NCBI RefSeq assembly: GCF_964213995.1
Contig: NC_135824.1
Location: 7,378,001-7,442,000, forward strand
DNA from: Mustelus asterias
Taxonomy: Eukaryota
Direction of reading: 5' to 3'
DNA: 64,000 nucleotides
Each line of letters begins with the position of its first letter. Position 1 is the stretch's first letter. The notes beneath the pieces are model-generated. The model searched no databases and was not told the DNA's origin. It saw nothing but the letters and a program-made list of their open reading frames with translations. Shown here piece after piece: positions 610 to 63,239 of the stretch. Made by a program: the position numbers and the translations under genes.

Positions 610-1095
610 AGTAAGAAGTCTCACAACACCAGGTTAAAGTCCAACAGGTTTATTTGGTAGCACAAGCCACTAGCTTTCGGAGCGTCGCTCCTTCATCAGG
701 TAAGTGGGAGTTCTGTTCACAAACAGGGCATATAAAGACACAAACTCAATTGACAAAATAATGGTTGGAATGCGAGTCTTTACAGGTAATCAAGTCTTAA
801 AGTTACAGACAATGTGAGTGGAGAGAGGGTTAAGCACAGGTTAAAGAGACGTGTATTGTCTCCAGCCAGGACAGTTAGTGAGATTTTGCAAGCCCAGGCA
901 AGTCATGGGGGTTACAGATAGTGTGACATGAACCCAAGATCCCGGTTGAGGCCGTCCTCATGTGTGCGGAACTTGGCTATCAGACTCTGCTCAGCGACTC
1001 TGCGCTGTCGTGTGTCATGAAGGCCGCCTTGGAGAACACTTACCCAAAGATCAGAGGCCGAATGCCCGTGACCGCTGAATTGTTCCCCAACAGGA
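610..1095 (-). mobile_element. Penelope-like element family A, 3' fragment (GIY-YIG C-terminus plus terminal repeat)
   Basis: PVGEQFSGHGHSASDL...RRVAEQSLIAKFRTHEDGLNRDLGFMSHY; nearly identical to 9569-10050. Confidence 0.85.
668..702 (-). ncRNA. Minimal type-I hammerhead ribozyme motif (Penelope family A)
   Basis: Minus strand: UAC CUGAUGA A GGAGC-GAC-GCUCC GAAA GC UA GUG. Intact core, 5-bp stem II, palindromic AGCU in place of stem III. Confidence 0.7.
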
Positions 1096-1737
1096 ATGTA
1101 TCTGTCAAGATGCCTCTTAAACGTTGCTATTGTATCTGCTTTTACCACATCCTCTGTCAACACATTCCAGGCACTTACCACCCTCTGTGTAAAAAACTTG
1201 CCTCTCACATCTCCTTTAAACTTTCCCCCTTTTACCCGAAAATTATGTCCTCTAGTAATTGATATTTCTATCCTATTCAAACTAATTCTTAAAACCTGTT
1301 TTGTTTTGTGTGTAACAAGCTCAATGCCTCGTCACCTGAACCTTCCCTTATGGCTCCCACTATTTTCACTGGTGAATGACTGAATCTCATTGGCTAAGTA
1401 AAAATGACCTTGTAGCTATTGAATTGTCATGAAAATCTAAGTGAATAAATCGTTCCCTGTCGATTAAGAAACCCACTGTCTTTTGCCAGTTTGCTGTAAA
1501 CGTAACTCTAGACCCACACCAAAACTGTTGACTTTTAACTAATTCCTGAAGTGACCCAGCGAATCATTCAGTCGTACCAAACTGCTACAAAGAATCAAAC
1601 TGCAATAAGAAGTAAGTCCACTGCCACCTCCTCAGGGCACGGAGGAATGGGCAATAACTGCCGGCCTTTCCAACAACCTTGAGTACATTTTTAACATCCA
1701 AAATTCCTACCGATGGCTCTGTGCTGAAATGAAAGGA

Positions 1738-3821: not shown

Positions 3822-4132
3822 GGGGGCGGCACAGTGGCACAGCGGTTAGCACTGCTGCCCCACAGCGCAAGGGACCCGGGTTCAATTCCCAGCTTGGGTC
3901 ACTGTCTCTGTGGAGTTTGCACATTCTCCCGTGGGTTTCCTCCGGGTGATCCGGTTTCCTCCCAGTCCAAAGATGTGTGGGTTAGGTGGATTGGCCATGC
4001 TAAATTGCCCCTTAGTGTCAGGGGGACTAGCTAGGGTAAATGTAGGGTTATGGGGATAGGACCTGGTTGGGATTGTGGTCGGTGCAGACTCGATGGACCG
4101 AATGCCCTCCTTCTGCACTGTAAGATTCTATG
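3822..4132 (+). mobile_element. HE1-like V-SINE with CR1/HER1-type tail
   Basis: tRNA-like A/B boxes (TGGCACAGCGG, GGTTCAATTCC), V-core gtgggtttcctccgggtg, tail ...ccttctgcactgtaagattctatga. Confidence 0.9.
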
Positions 4133-5724
4133 AATCAGGTAATGACGGGCCTACTCACTTTCTGATTGGCATGGAAACCAGTGTGTCATGAGGATGGAAA
4201 TGTTGGATGGTTAGAACCAGGAAGTTCTGTGATGACATGTCCAGGAATATATCCAACATGAGTTCCTAACCCTAATCGCGACTCAGGCCAGGAATTCAAT
4301 GGGTAACCTCCCTGTCTGGCATTATGACACAGTACCTTATTAGGTGGCATCATTGGAGGCCCAGTTAGTGAATCTCATGTGGTGGAGTCTTATTGTGCCA
4401 ACTAATCAAAAAATCCCATTGCCTTTGCCGCTGAAAGGAGGCTCCCTCCAGAGCAGCTGAATCCTGATACTCATCAAACTTTCCAAAAAAAAGATCAATA
4501 TTATGCTTGGATCGCAATATGAAGTGCAGATGTGAAATGAATCAACACTCTTTGTACCTGCAGATCCCTGTTTATCCTGCAACAGAATCTAAATTAAAGC
4601 AGCATGCTGCACACACTCATTGTTCCACAAGATGTTCAGAATCTTCGTCTCTGATGTACTGCTGATCTCATGCGCCAGTTTGACTTGAAATGTGCGGTGG
4701 TATCCTTAGGTGACAGATTGACAATACAGCAAGTGTTGAAATGTGAAGGATTGGGAGGTAAGTACATCAGGATTATCCATTTGCGTTATATTTGAATCAG
4801 GGTGTCTATATAACTGGAATTAGTAGGAAGTGATTTGGTGGATTGGAATTCTGTACTTGGATCGGAGCTATGCTTGGCCTGGGCACATCAATATGGAATC
4901 AATAGGGTTCCAGCTACAGTTCAAAGTGATTTATTAAAACAATACCCTCATGAACTTAAATTTGAGAAGCATTGTGTTTTTGACAGTGGATCAAAGAGAA
5001 ACGGAAAGAAAGATTTTTGTGTATTTTTCTATCCCACTGCTTTGGCTCCAGGGAATGCTGCCTCCTGCTGGTGTAAGGTTCCACAGTGCCAGCAGTTCCA
5101 CAATACCTCACCCAATGGCCTGTCTCCATGTGTGAGCACCGACAGTGAATCTCAGTATTTTATTCAGTGGAATGGGTCCACATTACTGACGCAAGTGGTC
5201 AGGGCCGGGGAGGTGGAAGGGAGTGTGGATCTTGACAAGGTCTTGAGGTCGAAGGAAGGAAGCCTGGAGCATGAGTTGCCCAAGGTTTCCCTGTGATTTG
5301 TTAATTGGGGAGTTGGTCATGGATGGGGGACATCTTTTAAAAAAAAAATAACTCCTCTCTTCAAGTTACAAAGCCAATGCACAGACTGGACTGGGCAAGA
5401 TCTTAATCCTTCACCTTGCTTGCTCCAAAAACCAATTCAAATTAAAATTGAGTCCAATTCATCGTCTCCACAAGAGAGACATACAAGATCCAAGCTGACA
5501 AGACAAGGGATTGCACCTCATCTTGGTTCTTGAACTGACGCCTGATCTGAGCCAAACTGCCCCAACTCCTCCCATCCCTCCAGGGAACTAAAAACTCCAA
5601 AAAGATCCACTTGCCTTTCTGGGCCTTTCCTGCTCCAGCTCCACTGTTTAGCAGCTAGGCTGTGCCTGAAAACTTCAATGACTGTCGGTGAAAAATTACA
5701 GTCAGGAGTGACATGGTTACTGAG

Positions 5725-6050
5725 TGGGGTGACACAGTAGCACAGTGGTTAGCACTGCTGCCTCACAACGCCAGGGACCGGGGTTCGATTCCTGGCTTGG
5801 GTTACTGTCTGTGTGGATTTTGCACATTTTCCCTGTGTCTGTGTGGGTTTTCTTTGGGTGCTCCAGTTACCTCCCACAGTCCAAAAATGTGCGGGTTAGG
5901 TGGATTAGCCATGCTAAATTGCCCCTTGGTGTCAGGGGGGCTAGCAAGGGTAACTGCATGGGGTTATGAGGATAGGGCCTGGGTGGGATTGTGGTTGGTG
6001 CAGATTCGATAGGCCAAATGACCTCCTTCTGCACTGTAGGATTCTATGGT
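5725..6050 (+). mobile_element. HE1-like V-SINE with CR1/HER1-type tail
   Basis: Same head, core and tail as 3822-4132. Confidence 0.9.
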
Positions 6051-6673
6051 TGTGAGGTAACACAAGAGCCTGATAACCCTCGACAGCAAGAGCAGACGCA
6101 TTTTCCAGTCATGTGGGTCAGTGTTCAGGACTAGGTGCAATATTTAATGTGTAGCCTGACTGGAAGATTCCAAAGTTTGATAGCTACCCATTCTATGATT
6201 CCGACTTGACATTCAAAAAATACTCTTGAATCAGGAAAACTGAAGCGTTAAAAAACTATGTGGCGAGATAAATTGATAAATTCCCTTTTTATTTACTTTC
6301 TCCCGTCTTCTCCTCATCTTTAATAAGGCTGCAGGCATGTCCCTGGATAAAGTTCCATCGACATCATGTCCAAATGACCATTTTCATCTGTGCAGCACAG
6401 AATAGTTTAGCCACGTTTCAGTTATCGAGTGCAGACCTGGGTTCAATCCTCTGGGATTACAATCAGCATCGGCATCCCAAATTAGGAAGTGGAAACTTGG
6501 CTCGGATTCTCACTCCTAACCTCCGTGCAGTGAACCCTTGTATATGGAGACAGAACGGGCTTGGCTATAATGCACTCATTCTCATGATAGAATAGATTGC
6601 TGACTCACTTGCTTCAGCGCAGCAGGAAGGGCATTGAAGTCAGGTCACACTCTGTTCTCTTCCAGACTTCAAT

Positions 6674-6975
6674 GGGCATGGTGGCACAGTGGTTGGCACT
6701 GCTGCCTCACAGCGCCAGGGACCCAGGTTCGATTCCCAGCTTGGATCACTGTCTGTGCGGAATCTGCACTTTCTCCCCGTGTCTGCATGGGTTTCCTCCA
6801 GCTGCTCCTCCCACAGTCTGAAAGACGTGCTGGTTAGGTGCATTGACCATGCTAAATTCTCCCTCAGTGTACCCGAACAGGTGCCGGAGTGTGGTGACGA
6901 GGGGATTTTCACAGTAACTTCATTGCAGTGTTAATGTAAGCCTACTTGTGACTAATAAATAAACTTTACTTTACT
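6674..6975 (+). mobile_element. V-SINE with alternative tail (type B)
   Basis: HE1-like head and core, then ctaaattctccctcagtgtacccgaacagg...gtaagcctacttgtgactaataaataaac. Confidence 0.85.
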
Positions 6976-6984
6976 GTACTTTTA

Positions 6985-7258
6985 CCTGGTTTCGATTCCA
7001 GCCTTGAGTGACAGTCTGTGTGGAGTTTGCACATTTTCCTCGTGATGTGTGGGTTTCCTCCGGGCGCTCTGGTTTCCTCCCACAGTCCAAAGATGTGCGG
7101 GTTAGGTGGATTGGCCATGCTAAATTGCCCAAGATGTGTAGGCTAGGGGGGATTAATGGGGTTATGGGGATAGTGCCTGGGTGAGATGCTCTTCTGGAGA
7201 GTCAGTACAGACTTGACGGGCTGAAAGGCCTCATTCTGCACTGTGGAGATTCTATGAT
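6985..7258 (+). mobile_element. 5'-truncated HE1-like V-SINE
   Basis: Starts at the B box; has V-core and CR1-type tail. Confidence 0.8.
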
Positions 7259-8126
7259 AGTTGCTGTTCCTGAATGAGTTCAGAGACACTGAGGTGAATT
7301 GTAACATTTCTACCGACAACCCAGCTATGGACAGTGAAGTCTTTGTGAATCGCGGATCATGATCTTTACCCAATAAACCATCAGAGAAAATTCCAATGAA
7401 CTGGGACTCTTCTGGTATCTGTGTGTTTCAGTTGCACGCAAGGCAGGAAATTTACAAAATAAAATTTTAGGGAACTTAGGGCCTTTACCGGTATGACAAC
7501 TGATCTGAAATTGTAGGGACTGAGTTATAATGAAGCTTCCGGCAGATATTTGAGAAATTTTAGGAACCAAATAGTCTAGATAATGAAATGTGTATGTTAC
7601 AAGAACAATACAGCCATAAACTCAGCTTTGAACACGACAGATTAGGAACTAGTGCGGAGGGGTAATAGCAGTGCTGGAAATAGCTGCTGCTCTGGGTTAG
7701 GGAGGGGATAATCAGCCAGTGTAATGATCATTAAGTAGGGACTCCTGTTAGAAAGTGTGTGTGAACATGGGTTCATGGGATTGAGCTCAGCTGCAAGGGC
7801 CTTCATTAAAATAATGAGCAGGGGATTATTGTATGCAACACATTTGTCTGCTCCCATCACTGGGAGCCTGTACATGCAAGTTTAGAGCAATGATGCCCAG
7901 AGTGTGGTCCACAGCGATCTCCAGGTGGTTCGCAGGCTGGTCCAAAATGCAAATCATTGAGATGCAGCCATGTGAGAGAACTGGGCAGATCCCTCATCCC
8001 CGCCACTCATGTAACATCAGAGAACCAGACTGGCTCCTGTGTGTGTGGCATGAGTCATGATCAGTGTGAGCGACAGCAATGGATTTTTATAAGCAAGGTT
8101 TATGTTATTATTATAAAACACAGCTG

Positions 8127-8425
8127 TGCGGGAGGATTTTCAATCCCTTTGGGTCCTGAAACATAGAAGAGAAACGGACTGAATGCGAAACCTGACATGA
8201 TACTGAAGATCGCAGCTTGGAACCAGACATTGGCCATTCGTTGGCGGACTCTCTGGTCCCGCTGGCGGTGCACCCTATGCCATGGGTCCCCAGCAGTGTG
8301 GGTGGCTTCAATGGAAATTTCAGTTGACAGTGGTGAGAGCAAAGGATTCCCCGCCAGCGAATCGCAGACGTACTGCCTCCCACAACCAAGAAAAGTGCTG
8401 AGGGGTGGCCAGAGAATCTCATCCA
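8127..8425. mobile_element. Non-autonomous DNA-transposon/MITE-like element
   Basis: GC-richer block with ends gggaggattttc ... gagaatctcatcc, resembling the termini at 34360 and 41620-41633. Confidence 0.4.
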
Positions 8426-9087
8426 TCATCTCATTGGTATCTCATCAAAAGCAGCACCAGTCTCTCCATTAATTGCATTGAGTTATTTGCAGTGGCAAAT
8501 GTCTACAAATAAAGACCATTGGCATCTCTCTCCAGGAGAGAGAGAGTGAGGCAAGAGGTGAGCGTGCTACTGAATGAGTCACAGCTGACACTATCAATGA
8601 TACTCCCAATCTAGCAGCGCAAAGGAAAGCTGATGTTGTGATTTAACGGTAAATTGTTGTGTTTCATTGTGTTGTTAGAGCCTCATAATTTCACTTTGGA
8701 TTACGCTTTTTTTTAGTCCTTTATTCCAAAGGCTCGCGGTCTCATTTGGAATTCTCCCTTGAGGTTGTTCCATGTTTGGGGAAATCTTCTAAAATGTTTT
8801 TCTTTATGGGGATTCCCCTCTTTATTGGAGGAGGAAGCAACTTGAGAAGCCAGGCACAGCTGGAGATCCAGACCGATGGCATCCAGTGTGTGGTCTCCTA
8901 AAAAGCCTTCCTTAATGTGGGCTTGAAAATTACATATAGGAAAACCTCTGTGTTCCAGGGAATATGTGGAGAAGTTCCTGGAGCAGCTACTCACTGCAGA
9001 TTGCTTTTCATTGGAGAGAAGCCCTTTCTGATCATGCTGGATTTTGATTTGATTTGATTTGATTTATTATTGTCACATGTATTAACA

Positions 9088-9265
9088 TGATGTGGAGATG
9101 CCGGCGTTGGACTGGGGTAAATACAGTAAGGAGTCTAACAACACCAGGTTAAAGTCCAACAGGTTTATTTGGTAGAAAACGCCACTAGCTTTCTATGGTG
9201 TTTGCTAATGGCGTTTGCTACCAAATAAACCTGTTGGACTTTAACCTGGTGTTGTTAGACTCCTT
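9088..9265. mobile_element. Hairpin mini-element made of two inverted Penelope-A termini
   Basis: 64-bp arms at 9126-9189 and 9204-9267 (2 mismatches); ACATGTATTAACA duplicated at 9075-9087 and 9266-9278. Confidence 0.8.
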
Positions 9266-9568
9266 ACATGTATTAACAAACAGTGAAAAGTATTGTTTCT
9301 TGCGCACTATACAGACAAAGCATACCGTTCATAGAGAAGGAAACGAGAGAGTGCAGAATGTAGTGTTACAGTCATAGCTAAGATGTAGAGAAAGATCAAC
9401 TTAAAGCAAGGTAGGTTCATTCAAAAGTCTCATGGCAGCAGGGAAGAAGCTGTTCTTGAGTTGGTTGGTACGTGACCTCAGACTTTTGTGGCTTTTCCCC
9501 GACAGAAGAAGGTGGAAGAGAGAATGTCCCGGATGCGTGGGGTCCTTAATTATGCTGGCTGCTTTGCC

Positions 9569-10400
9569 AAGTAAGAAATCTCACAACACCAGGTTAAAGT
9601 TCAACAGGTTTATTTGGCAGCACTAGCTTTCGGAGTCTCAAGCTCCTTCATCAGTTGAGTGAGGAGTTGTGTTCACAAACAGGGCATGTAAAGACACAAT
9701 TTACAAGATAATGGTTGGAATGCGAGTCTTCACAGGTAATCAAGTCTTAAAGGTACAGACAATGTGAGTGGAGAGAGGGCTAAGCACAGGTTAAAGAGGT
9801 GTGTATTGTCTCCAGCCAGGACAGTTAGTGAGATTTTGCAAGCGCAGGCAAGTCGTGGGGGTTACAGATAGTGTGACATGAACCCAAGATCCCGGTTGAG
9901 GCTGTCCTCATGTGTGCGGAACTTGGCTATCAGTTTCTGCTCAGTGATTCTGCGTTGTCGTGTGTCATGGAGGCCGCCTTGGAGAATGCTTACCCGAAGA
10001 TCAGAGGCTGAATGCCCGTGACTGCTGAAGTGTTCCCCGACTGGAAGGGAACACTCCTGCCTGGTGATTGTCGAGCGGTATTCATTCATTCTTGTCGTAG
10101 CGTCTGCATGGTCTCCCCAATGTACCATGTCTCGGGACATCCTTTCCTGCAGCGAACTAGCTAGACAACATTGGCCGAATCGCAAGAGTATGTACCGTAT
10201 ACCTGGTGGATGGTGTTCTCACATGAGATGATGGCATCCGTGTCGATGATCCGGCACATCTTGCAGAGGTTGCTGTGGCAGGGTTGTGTGATGTCATGGT
10301 CACTGTTCTCCTGAAGGCTGGGTAGTTTGCTGCGGAAAATGGTCTGTTTGATGTTGTGTGGTTATTTGAAGGCAAGAAGTGGGGGTGTGGGGATGGCCTG
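9569..10400 (-). mobile_element. Penelope-like element family A, degenerate GIY-YIG endonuclease region plus terminus
   Basis: Minus strand reads NLCKMCRI ... VV*LVRCRKGCPETWYIGET ... PVGEHFSSHGH ... RRITEQKLIAKFRTHEDSLNRD, with stops and frameshifts. Confidence 0.88.
9621..9657 (-). ncRNA. Minimal hammerhead motif (Penelope family A)
   Basis: Minus strand: CAA CUGAUGA A GGAG-cuugaga-CUCC GAAA GC UA GUG. Core intact; stem I has a mismatch. Confidence 0.6.
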
Positions 10401-38574: not shown

Positions 38575-39295
38575 AGCCTTGGCTCAGTGGTTTGCATGCT
38601 TTCCTCTGAGTTAGGCAGTTGTGAGTTCAAGTCGCGCTCCAGGACTTGAACATAAAATCAAGGCTGGCACTCCATTGCAGTACTGAGGGAGCGCTGCACT
38701 GCAGAGGTGTTGTCTTTCACATGAGACGTAAACCAAAGCTTCAGGGGGATGGGTAACACAGGAGGAGGAGACAATTACTTAATTCTGTTTACACTTAAGG
38801 TTTAGGGGCAACCAGATCAGCTGTGGCTCAGTTGGTATCATCTCAGAGTCAGCAGGTTGTAGATTCAAGACTCGCCCCAGGACTTGGGGATAAAAATCTC
38901 AGGTGACGATTCATCATGGAACTGTTGGAGGCGCTGCCTTTGGGAAAGGAGCTAAACAGAGGCACCTCTGCTCTCTGGGGCTGTGTAAAAGATCCCAGGG
39001 CACTGTTTCAAAGAAGGGCAAGGGTAATTATCCCCTAGCATTTAACTCTCAACCAATATCACATAAACAAATTATCTGGTCATTATCAAGTTGCTGCTTG
39101 TGGGATCTCTCTGTGTGCAAACCTGGTGTTTTAAACACCTTTAACCTGGTGTTGTGAGACTTCTTACTGTGCAAATCAGGTGACATGTTTCTACATTGCA
39201 ACAGTGCCCTAAACATCAGAAAGGACATATTTGGCTGTAAGGTGCTTTGAGACATCCTGAGGGTCTGAAAGGCAAAATATAAATGCAGCTCTTTC
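38575..39295 (+). mobile_element. Two tandem DeuSINE (SacSINE1-like) copies
   Basis: tRNA-like heads at 38577 and 38820; Deu-core gctgcactg..gaggtg..gtcttt..atgagacgtaaacc and gtaaaagatccca.ggcact. Confidence 0.75.
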
Positions 39296-42858: not shown

Positions 42859-42864
42859 CGGAGT

Positions 42865-42899
42865 CACCTGATGAAGGGGCAGCGCTCCGAAAGCTCGTG
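42865..42899 (+). ncRNA. Minimal hammerhead motif (Penelope family A terminus, 42862-42945)
   Basis: CAC CUGAUGA A GGGGC-agc-GCUCC GAAA GC UC GUG. Intact core, UC cleavage site, CAC/GUG stem I. Confidence 0.7.
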
Positions 42900-43129
42900 C
42901 TACCAAATAAACCTGTTGGACTTCAACCTGTTGTTGTGAAACTTATAACATTAGCTCCATTCTCTCTTCACAGATGTTGTCAGACCTGCTGAGATTTTCC
43001 AACACTTTCAGTTTTTGTTTCAGGTTCCAGCATCCACAGTAATTTGCCTTTATTATAGTTAGATTCATGTTGGGTAGGGGAATCAGAGGTTTTTAGGGTT
43101 GCAGAACCCAACACAAACAGCCATGATCT

Positions 43130-43289: not shown

Positions 43290-43455
43290 GCAGGGGGAGA
43301 AGGCCAGAGGGGCTGGATGGCCTACCTGCTACACTGTAGGGATTCTATGACAGTGGGGAGCATGTTGGAAGGGCTGAATGGCCTCCTGCTGCACTGTATG
43401 GATTGTGTGAATAGGGAGGGGAGCAGGCTGGAGGGGCTGAATGGCCTCCTGCTAT
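43290..43455 (+). repeat. Three tandem ~60-bp copies of a CR1/HE1 3'-tail unit
   Basis: ggggag...gggctg(g/a)atggcct(a)cctgct(a/g)cactgta..gatt recurs three times; the third copy is truncated. Confidence 0.65.
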
Positions 43456-43469
43456 TTGGAACGTTGGAA

Positions 43470-44320
43470 CATGGAGGGGGCGGGGCTAAGGGAAAGGCGG
43501 GAAGATTCGAATGGGCGGATGATGTCATGGCCCCGCCCCCTCTCTATCTCTCTCCTCCCACGTGACCGTCCGCGGCCGCGCCTGCGCGGAGAAGCGCGAG
43601 AAGATGGCGGACAGTGCGGAACTGAAGGTAATTTCGCAGCCGGGATTGCGGCTGGAGTGCGGGGCGGAGGAGGGAGCTGGCGCCGGCGGTGCGCTCTGAG
43701 TGTGCGGAGAGAGTCAGAGTGAGCGGGGAGAGATGGAGAGAGAAAGAGGGGGAGAGAGAGAGGAGGCGGCCGCCCCGGGGAGCGGAGAGTTAGGCCGCGC
43801 TCTCTGCAATCGCACCGAGCAACCGGGGAGCATCAGGCAGAGGGACCCGCTCCCCGGGCACAGCGTGGGCAAAAGGCGCGGAACTTTGCTGCTGAGGCTG
43901 TTGACAAGTTGTAGTTTTCTCTCTCTGCCTCTGTCTGCCTCTCCCTGTGTGTGTTGTGAAGTTAAAACAACAAACAGCAGAGAGAGGCGGGGGACAGCAG
44001 CCCTTCCTCAGGGCGAAGATGGTCAGGGGGGGCTTCTCTTTATTGCCCTGTCGCCTCTGCGACCTGATTTATTCAGTTAATAATTATGTCTCCACACCAA
44101 TTTCTCTCAAGACTAACCCCCTGATTTGTTTAATTATATACATACACATTTCTCTCACTGATTTATCATTAATAATTATATACAAACCCCCATTTCTCTC
44201 TCTCTCTGGAGATTAAACCCTCTGCCTGGGTTTTGTGTGAGACTGAGTGCTGATTTTTCTCCAGAAGGCTCTGACCCCGGGCAGCGCCGCCGCCAGTTCA
44301 ACGCAGGAGGATGATGGCGA
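43470..44320 (+). promoter_or_regulatory. CpG-island, TATA-less housekeeping-type promoter of PIAS1
   Basis: Sharp rise in GC and CpG. GC boxes at 43477-43486 and 43530-43539; CRE/ATF-like TGATGTCA 43520-43527; E-box CACGTGAC 43559-43566; NRF1-like GCGCCTGCGC 43578-43587; YY1 AAGATGGCGG 43601-43610. Confidence 0.85.
43604..43627 (+). CDS. PIAS1: First coding exon of PIAS1 (E3 SUMO-protein ligase), encoding MADSAELK; phase-0 intron follows
   Basis: aagATGGCGGACAGTGCGGAACTGAAG|gtaatt: strong Kozak context and a GT donor at 43628. The peptide matches the vertebrate PIAS1 N-terminus as I recall it. It lies in a CpG island. Exon 2 (QMVMSLRVSELQ...) is not seen in the window. Confidence 0.88.
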
Positions 44321-49820: not shown

Positions 49821-50162
49821 GGGCGGCACGGTAGCACAGTGGTTAGCACTGCTGCTTCACAGCTCCAGGGTCCTGGGTTCGATTCCCGGCTCGGGTCACT
49901 GTCTGTGTGGAGTTTGCACATTCTCCTCGTGTCTGCGTGGGTTTCCTCCGGGTGCTCCGGTTTCCTCCCACAGTCCAAAGATGTGCGGGTTAGGTTGATT
50001 GGCCAGGTTAAAAATTGCCCCTTAGAGTCCTGTGATGCGTAGGTTAGAGGGATTAGCGGGTAAATATGTAGGGGTAGGGCCTGGGTGGGATTGTGGTCGG
50101 TGCAGACTCGATGGGCCGAATGGCCTCCTTCTGCACTGTAGGGTTTCTATGATTTCTATGAA
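49821..50162 (+). mobile_element. Young HE1-like V-SINE subfamily copy
   Basis: CpG-intact; about 4 substitutions relative to 62023-62360. Confidence 0.92.
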
Positions 50163-50397
50163 TGCTTAAGAAGTCCAGAAAGTAGGTCCATGTCTTTTTT
50201 TCTCTCCTCGTCTATCGTTGCAGGTTGAAAGGATTAGTTGCATGCTAATGAAGGTGATGTTGCTTGTACTCTTCAGCAGAAGTGAAATTGAGCAATGTAG
50301 GTAAGCAGTTCATGAAAGCAGCTCACCACCACCTTCTCAAGGGCGATAAATGCTGGCCCAGCCATTGATGTCCACATCCTGTAAACTAATACCAAAA

Positions 50398-51875
50398 CGC
50401 TTCTTGAGGCATAACTGATTAACAGTCAACCCATAGCGATAGAAGATGTATAAGGGAAACAAAATTGGTATTTCACACACTACAGATAAAAAAGGAAGCT
50501 ACAAAAATGATAAACCTGAAACAAAAAAATTAAAATGTGTGAAGTACTAGGCATGTCAGCCAGCATCTGTAGACCAAACCATTGCTAATGTCTGGTTGTA
50601 GGACACGTAAAGCTGTCTTACATATTGTGAAGTTTCAGCATTATCTGTTTTTGAAGCATTTCAAATGTTGGGTGGCAATGCCAACTCATTGCAGTTCATC
50701 AAAAATCAGTTGATAACCTGGAATTGTTTGACTTTACATCACCTATTGACGTTTTTGAGGATTTTTATTTATTAACTGTACAAAAAAAGAAATTATTTGG
50801 ATGGGTGGGTGGTTATGATAACTGATCTTTCTGCTCTGGGTGTAGATGTTGTTGTTGGAAGCCAGCAATATAGTCCTCCTGGTAACATAATCCCAATCAG
50901 TGGAGTAAGAAGCTATTTTAGTCTCAAAGCTGCCTGTGGTTTTGAATTTCCTCTTGATCAATTCAGTTTTCCTCAGGAAGGTGTAAAGGTTTCTTCAGTG
51001 AACTCCCTTTCTTATTTACAAAAATCTATACAGTACATTTGCTTAAGTGAGTCAGATAACCTACTCTTGTTCAGCTTGCAGCTTTCGAACTTTCGACTCC
51101 TTTATTTACTGTAAATTTTTGATTCAGTATTTTTCCACTTATGCAAATTTATTTGAACCATTTTTATTGAGTCTGTTTCTATTCTACACTCTTTGTGGAG
51201 TTATAGATGCCAGTAAAGAATGTAGTTAAATGCTTGTACTAATGCCCTCTTTATATTATAGAACACCTCCCATTTAAATTGTTTTATTATGCTTGAGACA
51301 TCAGGAGTATACAATCAACCTGATGTACATTCAATACGCAGAGTTATAATTACAATTTTAATTTCTTGGCTGTGAATCTTCCCTCATGTCTAGGTTAGGC
51401 CTGTATGGGCAGATTGCCTGCAGGTAGCCAGAAAATGTACTGGCCAAAACGGACGAATATTTATCTTTATCAGCTCTGTATCTTGGAGTCTGGGAAAATC
51501 ACCTACTGGGTTTGTTGATTCTGCAGGTGCTTTGCTTCATTTATATTACAATTCTGCCAGAGAAGTTAGAGTTGCTATTAGTGACCGCACTGTAATATAA
51601 ATGGTCCACAAGCATTATCCACAAACAGATAATGCTGAAACTTCACAATATGTAAGAAAGCTTTACGTGTCCTACAACCAGACATTAGCAATGGTTTGGT
51701 CTACAGATGCTGGCTGACATGCCTAGTACTTCACACATTTTAATTTTTTTGTTTCAGGTTTATCATTTTTGTAGCTTCCTTTTTTATCTGTAGTGTGTGA
51801 AATACCAATTTTGTTTCCCTTATACATCTTCTATCGCTATGGGTTGACTGTTAATCAGTTATGCCTCAAGAAGCG
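50398..51875. repeat. 253-bp inverted repeat (arms 50398-50650 and 51623-51875, 972-bp spacer)
   Basis: The arms are reverse complements, with one mismatch seen (aaagctGtcttaca vs aaagctTtcttaca). Confidence 0.92.
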
Positions 51876-52392
51876 CTTACAAGGTAGGGTAAATATCACA
51901 TAAAATGTAGTCCTTTAATTTTGTCAGTCTCCCGAATTTGGAAAATTCAATGTTCATTATATTAAGAAAACTGCACAGGGAACATTAACTTTCAATGGCT
52001 GTGATCAGTAATTTAAAAATGTCAATCTTAATCCCTTTACAGGTGTAAATGGATCCTGTGAACTGTACTTCAGGTTACAAACATATTGTTCCAATGAGCT
52101 AAATTTTATCTTGTAACTTTTTCATAAGTTAATATAGCTAACAATAGTTGCATTTGCACCTGGTAATGTATCTTGCCTTTCTGTTTCTTGGTAACTGGCA
52201 TCTCTCACTATTGGGACTGTTCTCAATTTCAGTTTCTCTTATTGGTTTTCCACAGTCAATGCCTTAAATATCACTTTCTAATTAATATTCTCAGTGGGAG
52301 CTGGACTTCTCCATATCCCGATTTGAATAACTATGTCACTGTTTCAGCATGCTTCCCACCCAACTCGGTGGTATCAACAAGCTTACAAATGC

Positions 52393-57087: not shown

Positions 57088-57730
57088 GAAGCTGTGGTTC
57101 AGTTGTTTGCCATCTCATCTGAATCAGCAGGTTGTGGGTTCAAGTCCAATTCTAGGATTTGAGTGTAAAACTCTAGGCTGACAATCCAGTGCGGTAGTGA
57201 GCGATTTCTGACACTGTTGGAGGTGCTGTCTTTCAGATGAGAAATTGAACTGAGGCATCGTCCATGTTCAGATGAATGTAAACAATCCAGTGCCACTATT
57301 TTGAAGTCTCACAACACCAGGTTAAAGTCCAACAAGTTTATTTGGAAACACAAGCTTTCGGAGACTCACCCGATGAAGGAACAGGACTCCGAAGGCTCGT
57401 GGTTCCAGATAAAGCTGTTGGACTTTAACCTGGTGTTGTGAAACTTCTTACTGTGCCCACCCCAGTTCAACACTGGCATCTCCACCTTGTGACTATTTTG
57501 AAAAACAGGGGAGTTATTCCTGATGTCCTGGCCAATATTTGTCCCGCAATCAACATCAGAACAATGAATATTTAGTCATTATCACATTGCTGTTTATGGA
57601 ACATTGCTGTGCATAAGTTGGTTGTCGCATTTCCTATATTGTAAATGTGACAATACAATCAGAAGTACTTCATAGACTGTGAAGTGCTTTGGGACATTTG
57701 TTGGTTATTAAATGCATGACATAAACTGTA
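57088..57730 (+). mobile_element. DeuSINE (SacSINE1-like), interrupted by a Penelope-A hairpin element
   Basis: Head similar to 38820; Deu-core cactgttggaggtgctgtctttcagatgaga...tcctggccaatattt. Confidence 0.75.
57306..57491. mobile_element. Hairpin mini-element of inverted Penelope-A termini with a decayed hammerhead (57367-57401)
   Basis: Inverted arms ~57304-57363 and ~57387-57447; ACTATTTTGAA duplicated at 57295-57305 and 57492-57502. Confidence 0.8.
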
Positions 57731-62022: not shown

Positions 62023-62360
62023 GCGGCACGGTAGCACAGTGGTTAGCACTGCTGCTTCACAGCTCCAGGGTCCTGGGTTCGATTCCCGGCTCGGGTCACT
62101 GTCTGTGTGGAGTTTGCACATTCTCCTCGTGTCTGCGTGGGTTTCCTCCGGGTGCTCCGGTTTCCTCCCACAGTCCAAAGATGTGCGGGTTAGGTTGATT
62201 GGCCAGGTTAAAAATTGCCCCTTAGAGTCCTGGGATGCGTAGGTTAGAGGGATTAGCGGGTAAATATGTGGGGGTAGGGCCTGGGTGGGATTGTGGTTGG
62301 TGCAGACTCGATGGGCCAAATGGCCTCCTTCTGCACTGTAGGGTTTCTATGATTCTATGA
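62023..62360 (+). mobile_element. Young HE1-like V-SINE subfamily copy
   Basis: Near-identical to 49821-50162. Confidence 0.92.
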
Positions 62361-63239
62361 ATGATCCAGCTGCAATCCCAACCATGCACTTTAACCTTTA
62401 CAAAGTATGGGAGATACAGTAAACACGGGATGTTCAACACACCGGCTTAACTTGTGCCATTGTAATGGGTCTACCTTTAAAATAATTTTGTTACTGGATT
62501 GACGAGGTCTGGGACAAAAATAAAAGCTTAAATTTGACAACTCCTCAAATTCACATTTTCTAAAGTTTAAAATGAATAACTGAACCAGCTTCTAGGGTCA
62601 GATAGAGGCAAATGCAACATTTGTTTAAAACTCAAAAAGTCAGAAGATTGGAGACTTGGAACCTGGCAAGTTGGATGAACTCACTAAGATGATGGTAGAG
62701 GTTACCACACTGGACCTCTGTGCCTCCAGGCTAGGAAGTGGGAAAACCAGCTATGGTTCCTACTCTAATCACTATTCATTGCTGGAAGGTGTGCATCTGG
62801 CCTGCTGTTGAACTGCACCACAGCAAGAGTAGGTGTGTTCAGAAGAGAAAAAAAAGTGGAAAGTTAATATAACATTTTAACAAGGAATATTTATGAAATA
62901 TAGGTGGTCTAAATTGCAAGATAATTTGCCATGAGCCTGGGTTGGGGGGGAAGGTGGGATTATAAAAATGACTTGGTTCAGAGGATCGTCATGATTGAGT
63001 TTACTTTGAGAGGATTTGAATTTAAGCATGTATTTGGATTTGGTAAAAATGTGTTTGTGCAGTACTGCATATATTTGCCTGCCTAACTAAGTTGGACGAG
63101 GTCATGCTTTAGTGGTGTCTAGCTGTACATTTCTCATAGGATCTTGTGCTCAAGTTAAACACCTCCCTGTACTTCATAAGTTTAGGGATTTAACCATTGG
63201 ATCAACTGTGCATTTAGGGTAAAATGTGTAAGAGGTGGC

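Follow-up and report, generated by a model that had tools for sequence, protein, structure and literature searches.

A minimal type I hammerhead of an abundant, apparently Neptune-type Penelope-like element of Mustelus asterias, and truncated copies that begin at its predicted cut

Minimal hammerhead ribozymes (min-HHRs) have been reported for the Xena, Poseidon and Neptune Penelope-like elements (PLEs) of fishes (Cervera and de la Pena 2014, PMC4209133). In the accessible part of that paper the metazoan PLE motif is a type I hammerhead that lacks loop III, has a palindromic 15.2-16.2, an extra base at 9/10.1 and a G10.1-C11.1 pair, and occurs mostly as single dispersed copies that form covarying families, all of which is also true of the motif described below. 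The same pages give no activity in vitro for monomers and low activity for dimers, and dimer dependence is described both there and in the available summary of Lunse et al. in a review (PMC6765202). Animal non-LTR retrozymes likewise carry a type I hammerhead of PLE origin, and the available text of a preprint (bioRxiv 10.64898/2026.07.22.740005) reports that eight of nine Xenopus retrozyme dimers did not cleave. PAc, a Poseidon element of Anolis carolinensis (Frangieh et al. 2024, PMC11167929), has a hammerhead in its pseudo-LTR region; according to the accessible part of that study both target strands are extended, two internal reverse transcriptase (RT) start sites define the tail, the hammerhead is protein-assisted in vitro, and cleavage is dispensable for insertion in vitro. 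Neptune-clade PLEs with a C-terminal endonuclease (EN+; Craig et al. 2021, PMC8557442) are described, in the portion at hand, as having a single RT-EN ORF with a DKG motif and a CX2-5CxxC linker, pseudo-LTRs that contain a hammerhead, an inverted 5'-truncated copy and a one-sided tail of 30-40 bp. According to a 2020 review (PMC7761336, available part), whether these motifs are active in vivo and what role they have is "still a mystery". We found no earlier report of a cleavage footprint in the literature covered, most subscription papers lying outside that coverage; none is reported in the accessible part of PMC4209133, and the term shark is absent from the searched portion of its supplement.

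The DNA analysed here (the window) is a stretch of 64,000 nucleotides of the Mustelus asterias genome. A first-pass annotation of the window had recognized the minimal type I hammerhead of a PLE, whose stem III is palindromic and whose A9 is followed by an extra base, and this matches the motif in the accessible part of PMC4209133. As a ribozyme it is ordinary, in that all of its listed features were published there in 2014. Its stems I and II measure 3-4 and 5-6 bp, compared with 4-5 and 7-8 bp in Schistosoma, and the copy number exceeds 100,000, compared with 4,000-9,000 in coelacanth and Xenopus (PMC4209133, same part); a family with more than 100,000 ends makes in vivo cutting a counting problem. 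Our main reading, to which we give a probability of roughly two in three, is that this is the minimal type I hammerhead of an abundant Neptune-type PLE and that it has likely cut a minor share of this element's RNA in germ-line cells; in vivo cutting is suggested by the accumulation of 5'-truncated copies at the predicted scissile bond.

Direct inspection of the window confirmed five motif copies, three of them with the canonical core CUGANGA ... GAAA ... UH intact, at the coordinates where the first-pass annotation had placed them (Table 1). A descriptor composed from published min-HHR features after the motif had been seen (core CUGANGA, an optional extra base, stem II of at least 4 pairs, GAAA, a self-complementary dinucleotide, U-H, and stem I of at least 2 pairs) matches the window at exactly the copies that begin at 668, 9621 and 42865, that is three times versus none in 200 dinucleotide shuffles. 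The bare core is weak alone, with 13 matches versus 6.99 +/- 2.98, a number equalled by 6 of 100 shuffles. A scan of the window with Rfam returned no hammerhead family at E<=5, as expected for a motif without stem III. The base at H17 is A, A, C, C and U across the five copies, in agreement with the earlier statement that the cleavage-site base is A, C or U and never G. Loop II differs among the copies, as had also been noted, and the difference is partly inherited, since the copies belong to different subfamilies.

Table 1. Features of the PLE family in the window (positions are those of the window; numbering within the element takes +1 as the first base after H17).
Feature	Position	Strand	Remarks
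Minimal type I hammerhead, subfamily S8 (older, short-spacer)	42865..42899	+	Stem I 3 bp; extra A; palindromic stem III
84-bp 5'-truncated PLE end carrying the focal hammerhead	42864..42947	+	AATAAA inside; start at position -33
Minimal hammerhead, subfamily A1	668..702	-	H17 = A; U-G wobble in stem I
Minimal hammerhead, longer loop II	9621..9657	-	H17 = A
Decayed hammerhead, right arm of head-to-head insertion	57367..57401	+	U4C; A15.1G; two stem II mismatches
Hammerhead 3' half, left arm of the same 57303..57495 insertion	57348..57363	-	H17 = U; truncated at about -12
Whole head-to-head insertion, approximate ends	57303..57495	.	About 11-bp target-site duplication; tail on right arm
Head-to-head PLE stub pair, overlooked by the first-pass annotation	9086..9267	.	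Arms end at -8 and -4; about 13-bp target-site duplication
PLE 3' fragment: last 60 codons of the GIY-YIG domain (912-1094) and pseudo-LTR	610..1096	-	Short 3' end
Second PLE 3' fragment	9570..10046	-	90% identity to 610-1096
33-bp PLE 3' stub without ribozyme, overlooked by the first-pass annotation	39139..39171	+	

The predicted cut falls between 42896 and 42897 in the focal copy, in which stem II has 5 bp including one G-U and H17 is C, and between 671 and 670 in the copy at 668-702; in the copy at 9621-9657 the closing pair of stem I is an A.G mismatch. The PLE end that carries the focal copy begins at the stem I front edge, behind a LINE RT fragment, and a clear target-site duplication is absent from it; this window copy is a dead stub, and there is no selection on single copies. 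The idea that the copies at 9621 and 42865 are 7-nt deletions of the copy at 668 was rejected, the short spacer being that of a subfamily of its own (26 copies).

The host element is about 3.0 kb long and has one ORF, with the order DKG, YIDD, C-x4-CxxC linker and GIY-YIG-type motifs in near-full-length loci; RT followed by a C-terminal GIY-YIG endonuclease is seen in L031-L033, and a CX2-5CxxC linker between the two in L031 and L033. Pfam searches of frame fragments gave RVT_1 (E 2.9e-5) and GIY-YIG (E 0.0074), both below the curated cut-off, and the GIY-YIG part of the window fragment at 912-1094 is 88-90% identical to the near-full-length loci L032 and L033. The hammerhead at 9621, like the one at 668, follows the final codons of such a GIY-YIG domain. 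These motifs fit a Neptune-type PLE, the choice of Neptune over Nematis being made by motifs alone; the CX2-5CxxC linker is also a Nematis feature (PMC8557442, available portion). Pseudo-LTRs, an inverted truncated copy and a one-sided tail are all observed. The hammerhead lies in the pseudo-LTR, after the GIY-YIG stop codon and before the next ORF start, and the next ORF begins about 100 nt below the cut in partial tandems (L034, L018), whereas the PAc ORF starts inside the hammerhead (PMC11167929, in part). The copies have two fixed 3' ends, at about +64 and about +100, in keeping with a tail that is optional and with two sites of RT initiation, as given for PAc in the accessible part of PMC11167929. 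A 38-nt anchor downstream of the ribozyme has 133,202 exact matches in the genome, a minimum for the number of ends of this family, so the earlier remark that few copies are available does not hold. Retrozymes are tandem non-coding hammerhead units, in short arrays, whereas the window copies are single or head-to-head, two of them are joined to the ORF, and all are truncated ends of an autonomous PLE; one chondrichthyan was sampled for retrozymes in the available text of bioRxiv 10.64898/2026.07.22.740005, and it has both.

We note that every subfamily conserves an AATAAA 8-17 nt below the cut (for example at 651-657 on the reverse strand and 42905-42910 on the forward strand of the window); polyadenylation there would terminate the RNA ahead of both RT start sites. 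In L034 the PLE is interrupted by a LINE, which we take to be CR1-like, with an open frame of 1,004 codons or about 3 kb (endonuclease and RT) on the reverse strand.

For comparison among copies, we located the family by anchors outside the ribozyme in 1.6 Mb of sequence, made up of 96 arbitrary 10-kb stretches, 90 stretches at listed anchor matches or beside the window, and the window itself, a sample that is skewed to young copies. Of the 247 unique copies found, 69 were truncated or diverged and went unparsed, 178 were parsed by their flanks, and 162 were kept after 16 had been excluded for register. They form four subfamilies, A1 (37 copies), A2 (56), A3 (43) and S8 (26). At all 11 core positions the majority base is identical and canonical in four of four subfamilies, while the variable positions are N7 (C74 A49 U37 G2) and H17 (U84 A62 C15 G1), at the second of which G is in no subfamily majority; loop II also varies among subfamilies. 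The unpaired extra base after A9 is A in 157 of 162 copies, and the palindromic stem III without loop III is nearly constant (G15.2 in 159, C16.2 in 156 and U16.1 in 158 of 162). The stem II closing pair G10.1-C11.1 is G-C in 138 and G-U in 18 of the 162, and pair 10.3-11.3 is A-U in 93, G-U in 50 and G-C in 13. Covariation across copies, which had been proposed as a check, is found in stem I, where the closing pair 2.1-1.1 (C-G 95, U-A 55, U-G 4) is C-G in A1, A3 and S8 and has changed in a compensatory manner to U-A in A2, one evolutionary event spread over many copies; more generally, the subfamily variant counts mirror a few events in master elements and not independent changes.

Every canonical core base is kept in 127 of the 162 copies, and 35 have a core lesion, including G8A and G12A by CpG decay (8 each). 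Selection acts on the master elements, and single copies decay neutrally. The earlier claim that variation is confined to tolerated positions accordingly stands for the masters, whose subfamily majorities are canonical, and fails for individual copies with their 35 lesions. It had also been suggested that a core mutating as freely as its flanks would speak against the ribozyme, an argument that is invalid here, because dead copies decay neutrally and a core-versus-flank comparison within single copies is uninformative. The subfamily pattern also bears on the idea that the motif has lost catalysis and persists as a relic, or that it is retained for another reason as a site of protein binding, which we consider very improbable. 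It would suit a stem I of just 3-4 bp, the monomer inactivity and low dimer activity of min-HHRs in vitro (PMC4209133, accessible part) and the uncleaved Xenopus retrozyme dimers (bioRxiv 10.64898/2026.07.22.740005, available text), but the changes among subfamilies obey hammerhead rules (N7 and H17 are free, no majority base at H17 is G, and the stem I change is compensatory), the mutable CpG at C11.1-G12 is retained, and ends pile up at the cut.

ViennaRNA, which leaves the core unscored, does not return the hammerhead as the fold of lowest energy, either for the monomer or for the dimer. That two copies may be needed for cleavage is suggested by the literature, in the parts of PMC4209133 and PMC6765202 cited above. 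An alternative monomer register of the copy at 668, in which a second GUG is the stem I partner and stem III is a hairpin, has a similar energy (-6.7 vs -7.5 kcal/mol); it was rejected because it is conserved neither in A2, nor in A3, nor in most of A1, and because the A2 covariation suits the first site.

If cut RNA is reverse-transcribed, the resulting copies should begin at +1. Patterns for the end classes, each requiring three mismatches just upstream of the chosen first base, were counted over the whole genome for A3 at five positions or classes, S8, the subfamily of the focal copy, being left out. The first retained base is +1 in 1,329 A3 copies and -5 in 97, and 42,469 copies read through; +5 ends of A3, pooled with +3 ends of A1 and subject to a stricter filter, number 125. 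Ends at -1 number 304, which is fully explained by chance T residues after +1 ends, since 342 are expected from these. Corrected for the rate of passing the filter, there are about 3,050 ends at +1, 220 at -5 and 690 at +5 (pooled), and the +1 class makes up 6.6% of A3 copies, in agreement with 3 of 52 in an unselected local A3 sample. The position of the pile-up follows the ribozyme, since the distance from +1 to the AATAAA anchor is 15 nt for A2 copies and 17 nt for A3 copies. A2 shows a weaker peak than A3: when the first 100 of 3,379 A2-type truncations were tallied by hand, 30 fell at -2 to +1, 7 at -9 to -4 and 7 at +2 to +4 (the other 56 being 4 at -3, 31 in edge bins, 13 junction artefacts and 8 indels), and direct counts give 747 for +1/-1 versus 191 for +3, about twofold over a flat downstream background. 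The first-pass statement that activity cannot be shown from sequence was therefore too pessimistic, because truncated 5' ends give a sharp signal at the cut. The accessible part of PMC11167929 describes no RNA-seq reads that end at the cut in PAc, in contrast to the pile-up of genomic ends seen here; sequence of the present family occurs in contigs of four sequencing runs guessed to be RNA, and these contigs are uninformative on ends.

A real and conserved hammerhead could also be accompanied by a +1 pile-up that comes from junction formation (through microhomology, fold-back of the cDNA, or arrest of the RT where it meets a structure or a bound protein), which we think unlikely. Among the first 100 A3 +1 rows, 45 (counted by hand) have the flanks AAAA, AAAG or TTTG, which are typical of fold-back junctions with 1-2 nt of microhomology and leave the end uncertain by 1-2 nt; palindromes do make junction hot spots in this family, and a conserved 5-bp hairpin lies directly below the cut in the young subfamilies. 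The 5' ends also form another, wider cluster between -50 and -30, with 43 ends at 21 positions versus 24 ends at 24 positions inside the ribozyme, or about twice the rate, and in the local A3 sample -36 equals +1 with 3 ends each; the "young-type" filter behind this local profile is loose, so that S8 copies entered the 15-nt group. Pile-ups thus also arise without a cut. Against junction formation as the source of the +1 class, its upstream edge is sharp to one base, with -1 ends no more frequent than chance, and about half of the A3 +1 rows have diverse flanks. RT arrest at stem III would retain H17 and arrest at stem I would stop near +4, and in A3 the hairpin begins at +3 whereas the peak is at +1. 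A simple 64-nt insertion that starts at +1 and has a target-site duplication exists (L228), and other insertions are blunt pairs in which each arm ends at +1 or -1, some of them with unrelated filler in between (L226, L229, L238).

The pile at -50 to -30 lies at the ribozyme's front edge, with window examples at 42864 and 57364, and may represent a transcription start or palindrome-driven junctions; about 30 nt upstream of it there is a TATA-like run in A1 that is not clear in A2. The hairpin below the cut begins at +1 in A1 and A2 and at +3 in A3 (656-670 on the reverse strand of the window). Its 5-bp stem stays paired, apart from one A.C in A2 and one C-G/U-G change, while its 4-nt loop varies, and it is missing in the older S8 subfamily; it could sequester the stem I 3' strand, compete with stem I and damp cleavage.

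It is quite improbable, in our view, that +1 is instead the transcription start of a pseudo-LTR promoter that coincides with the scissile bond, with the stubs being complete copies of mRNA 5' ends. PLE pseudo-LTRs do have internal promoters (PMC2377424), A3 has a pyrimidine-purine at -1/+1, and G is fairly common at A3 -1 (G43 A42 C15 in 100 listed rows), as copying of a cap could give, but G is at -1 in only 2 of 100 listed A2 rows, so that there is no general cap signature. The start of D. virilis Penelope, 46 bp above a 75-bp intron that ends at stem I, is well upstream of the cut (PMC2377424 and PMC4209133, accessible parts), the front-edge pile is a better candidate for a start, and a start would be unlikely to fall on the scissile bond in several subfamilies whose spacing differs.

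The anatomy of the +1 loci speaks for the main reading, cutting of a minority of the RNAs. The first 20 listed A3 +1 loci have differing flanks and many have visible target-site duplications of 8-13 bp. In 17 of the 20 there is a head-to-head partner arm; none of these 17 arms reads through as far as -8, versus 5 of 13 in the -5 control class (Fisher p = 0.009); A2 is less clean, with read-through of the partner arm in 2 of 12. These partner-arm data are compatible with one cut RNA copied twice or with two cut RNAs. Among 76 typed head-to-head pairs (from 87 in unselected loci), 71 consist of one long and one short 3' end, where about half would be expected by chance. Such pairing fits two-site priming, as expected from PMC11167929 (accessible part), and it quantifies the long/short arms relative to the Neptune-clade PLEs of PMC8557442 (available portion). 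Both window pairs, 57303-57495 and 9086-9267, the second with a tail on one arm only and the ribozyme 5' half absent, agree with it.

A mechanism that would join these observations begins with the element's protein nicking both target strands and with reverse transcription starting at two fixed sites. On uncut RNA, the RT would read through the ribozyme, giving most copies; on cut RNA it would run off at +1 and leave stubs of 65-100 nt or head-to-head pairs that stop there, in which both cDNAs would have run off at +1 and then been joined. Stem III would be formed between two hammerheads through the AGCU palindrome, or be helped by the element's protein, both steps taken from the literature. 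On balance we favour the view that about 3,000 A3 insertions were copied from cut RNA and that their 5' junctions are a genome-wide, single-base record of germ-line cutting. If so, the ribozyme would be active in vivo, the sense transcript would be the template, and both strands of a two-sided insertion would have been primed on cut RNA; the share of +1 ends would be a readout of ribozyme activity for each subfamily. If the +1 pile-up is cleavage, it would also supply in vivo evidence with a rough efficiency (about 7% of A3 copies) for named natural sequences, and would count for a sense RNA template and against the antisense self-priming model of PMC3846280.

A few junctions are unusual. At the junctions of L221 and L238 (about 1500) short repeats begin anew from +1, two or three times over, as if the RT had re-primed where its template ended. 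Near position 2000 of their loci, L279 joins +1 to same-strand ORF-start sequence, L274 joins +1 to AATAAA, and in L271 a short run of A residues has been inserted at the cut, the ribozyme being otherwise full; these three single cases could be template jumps or tailing.

The window also contains a recent 259-bp inverted repeat of 98.8% identity (50395-50653 and 51620-51878), two recent SINE-like copies of 98.5% identity (49823-50164 and 62023-62363), and, about 550 bp downstream of the focal copy, a GC-rich stretch (43452-44080) that resembles a promoter or first exon.
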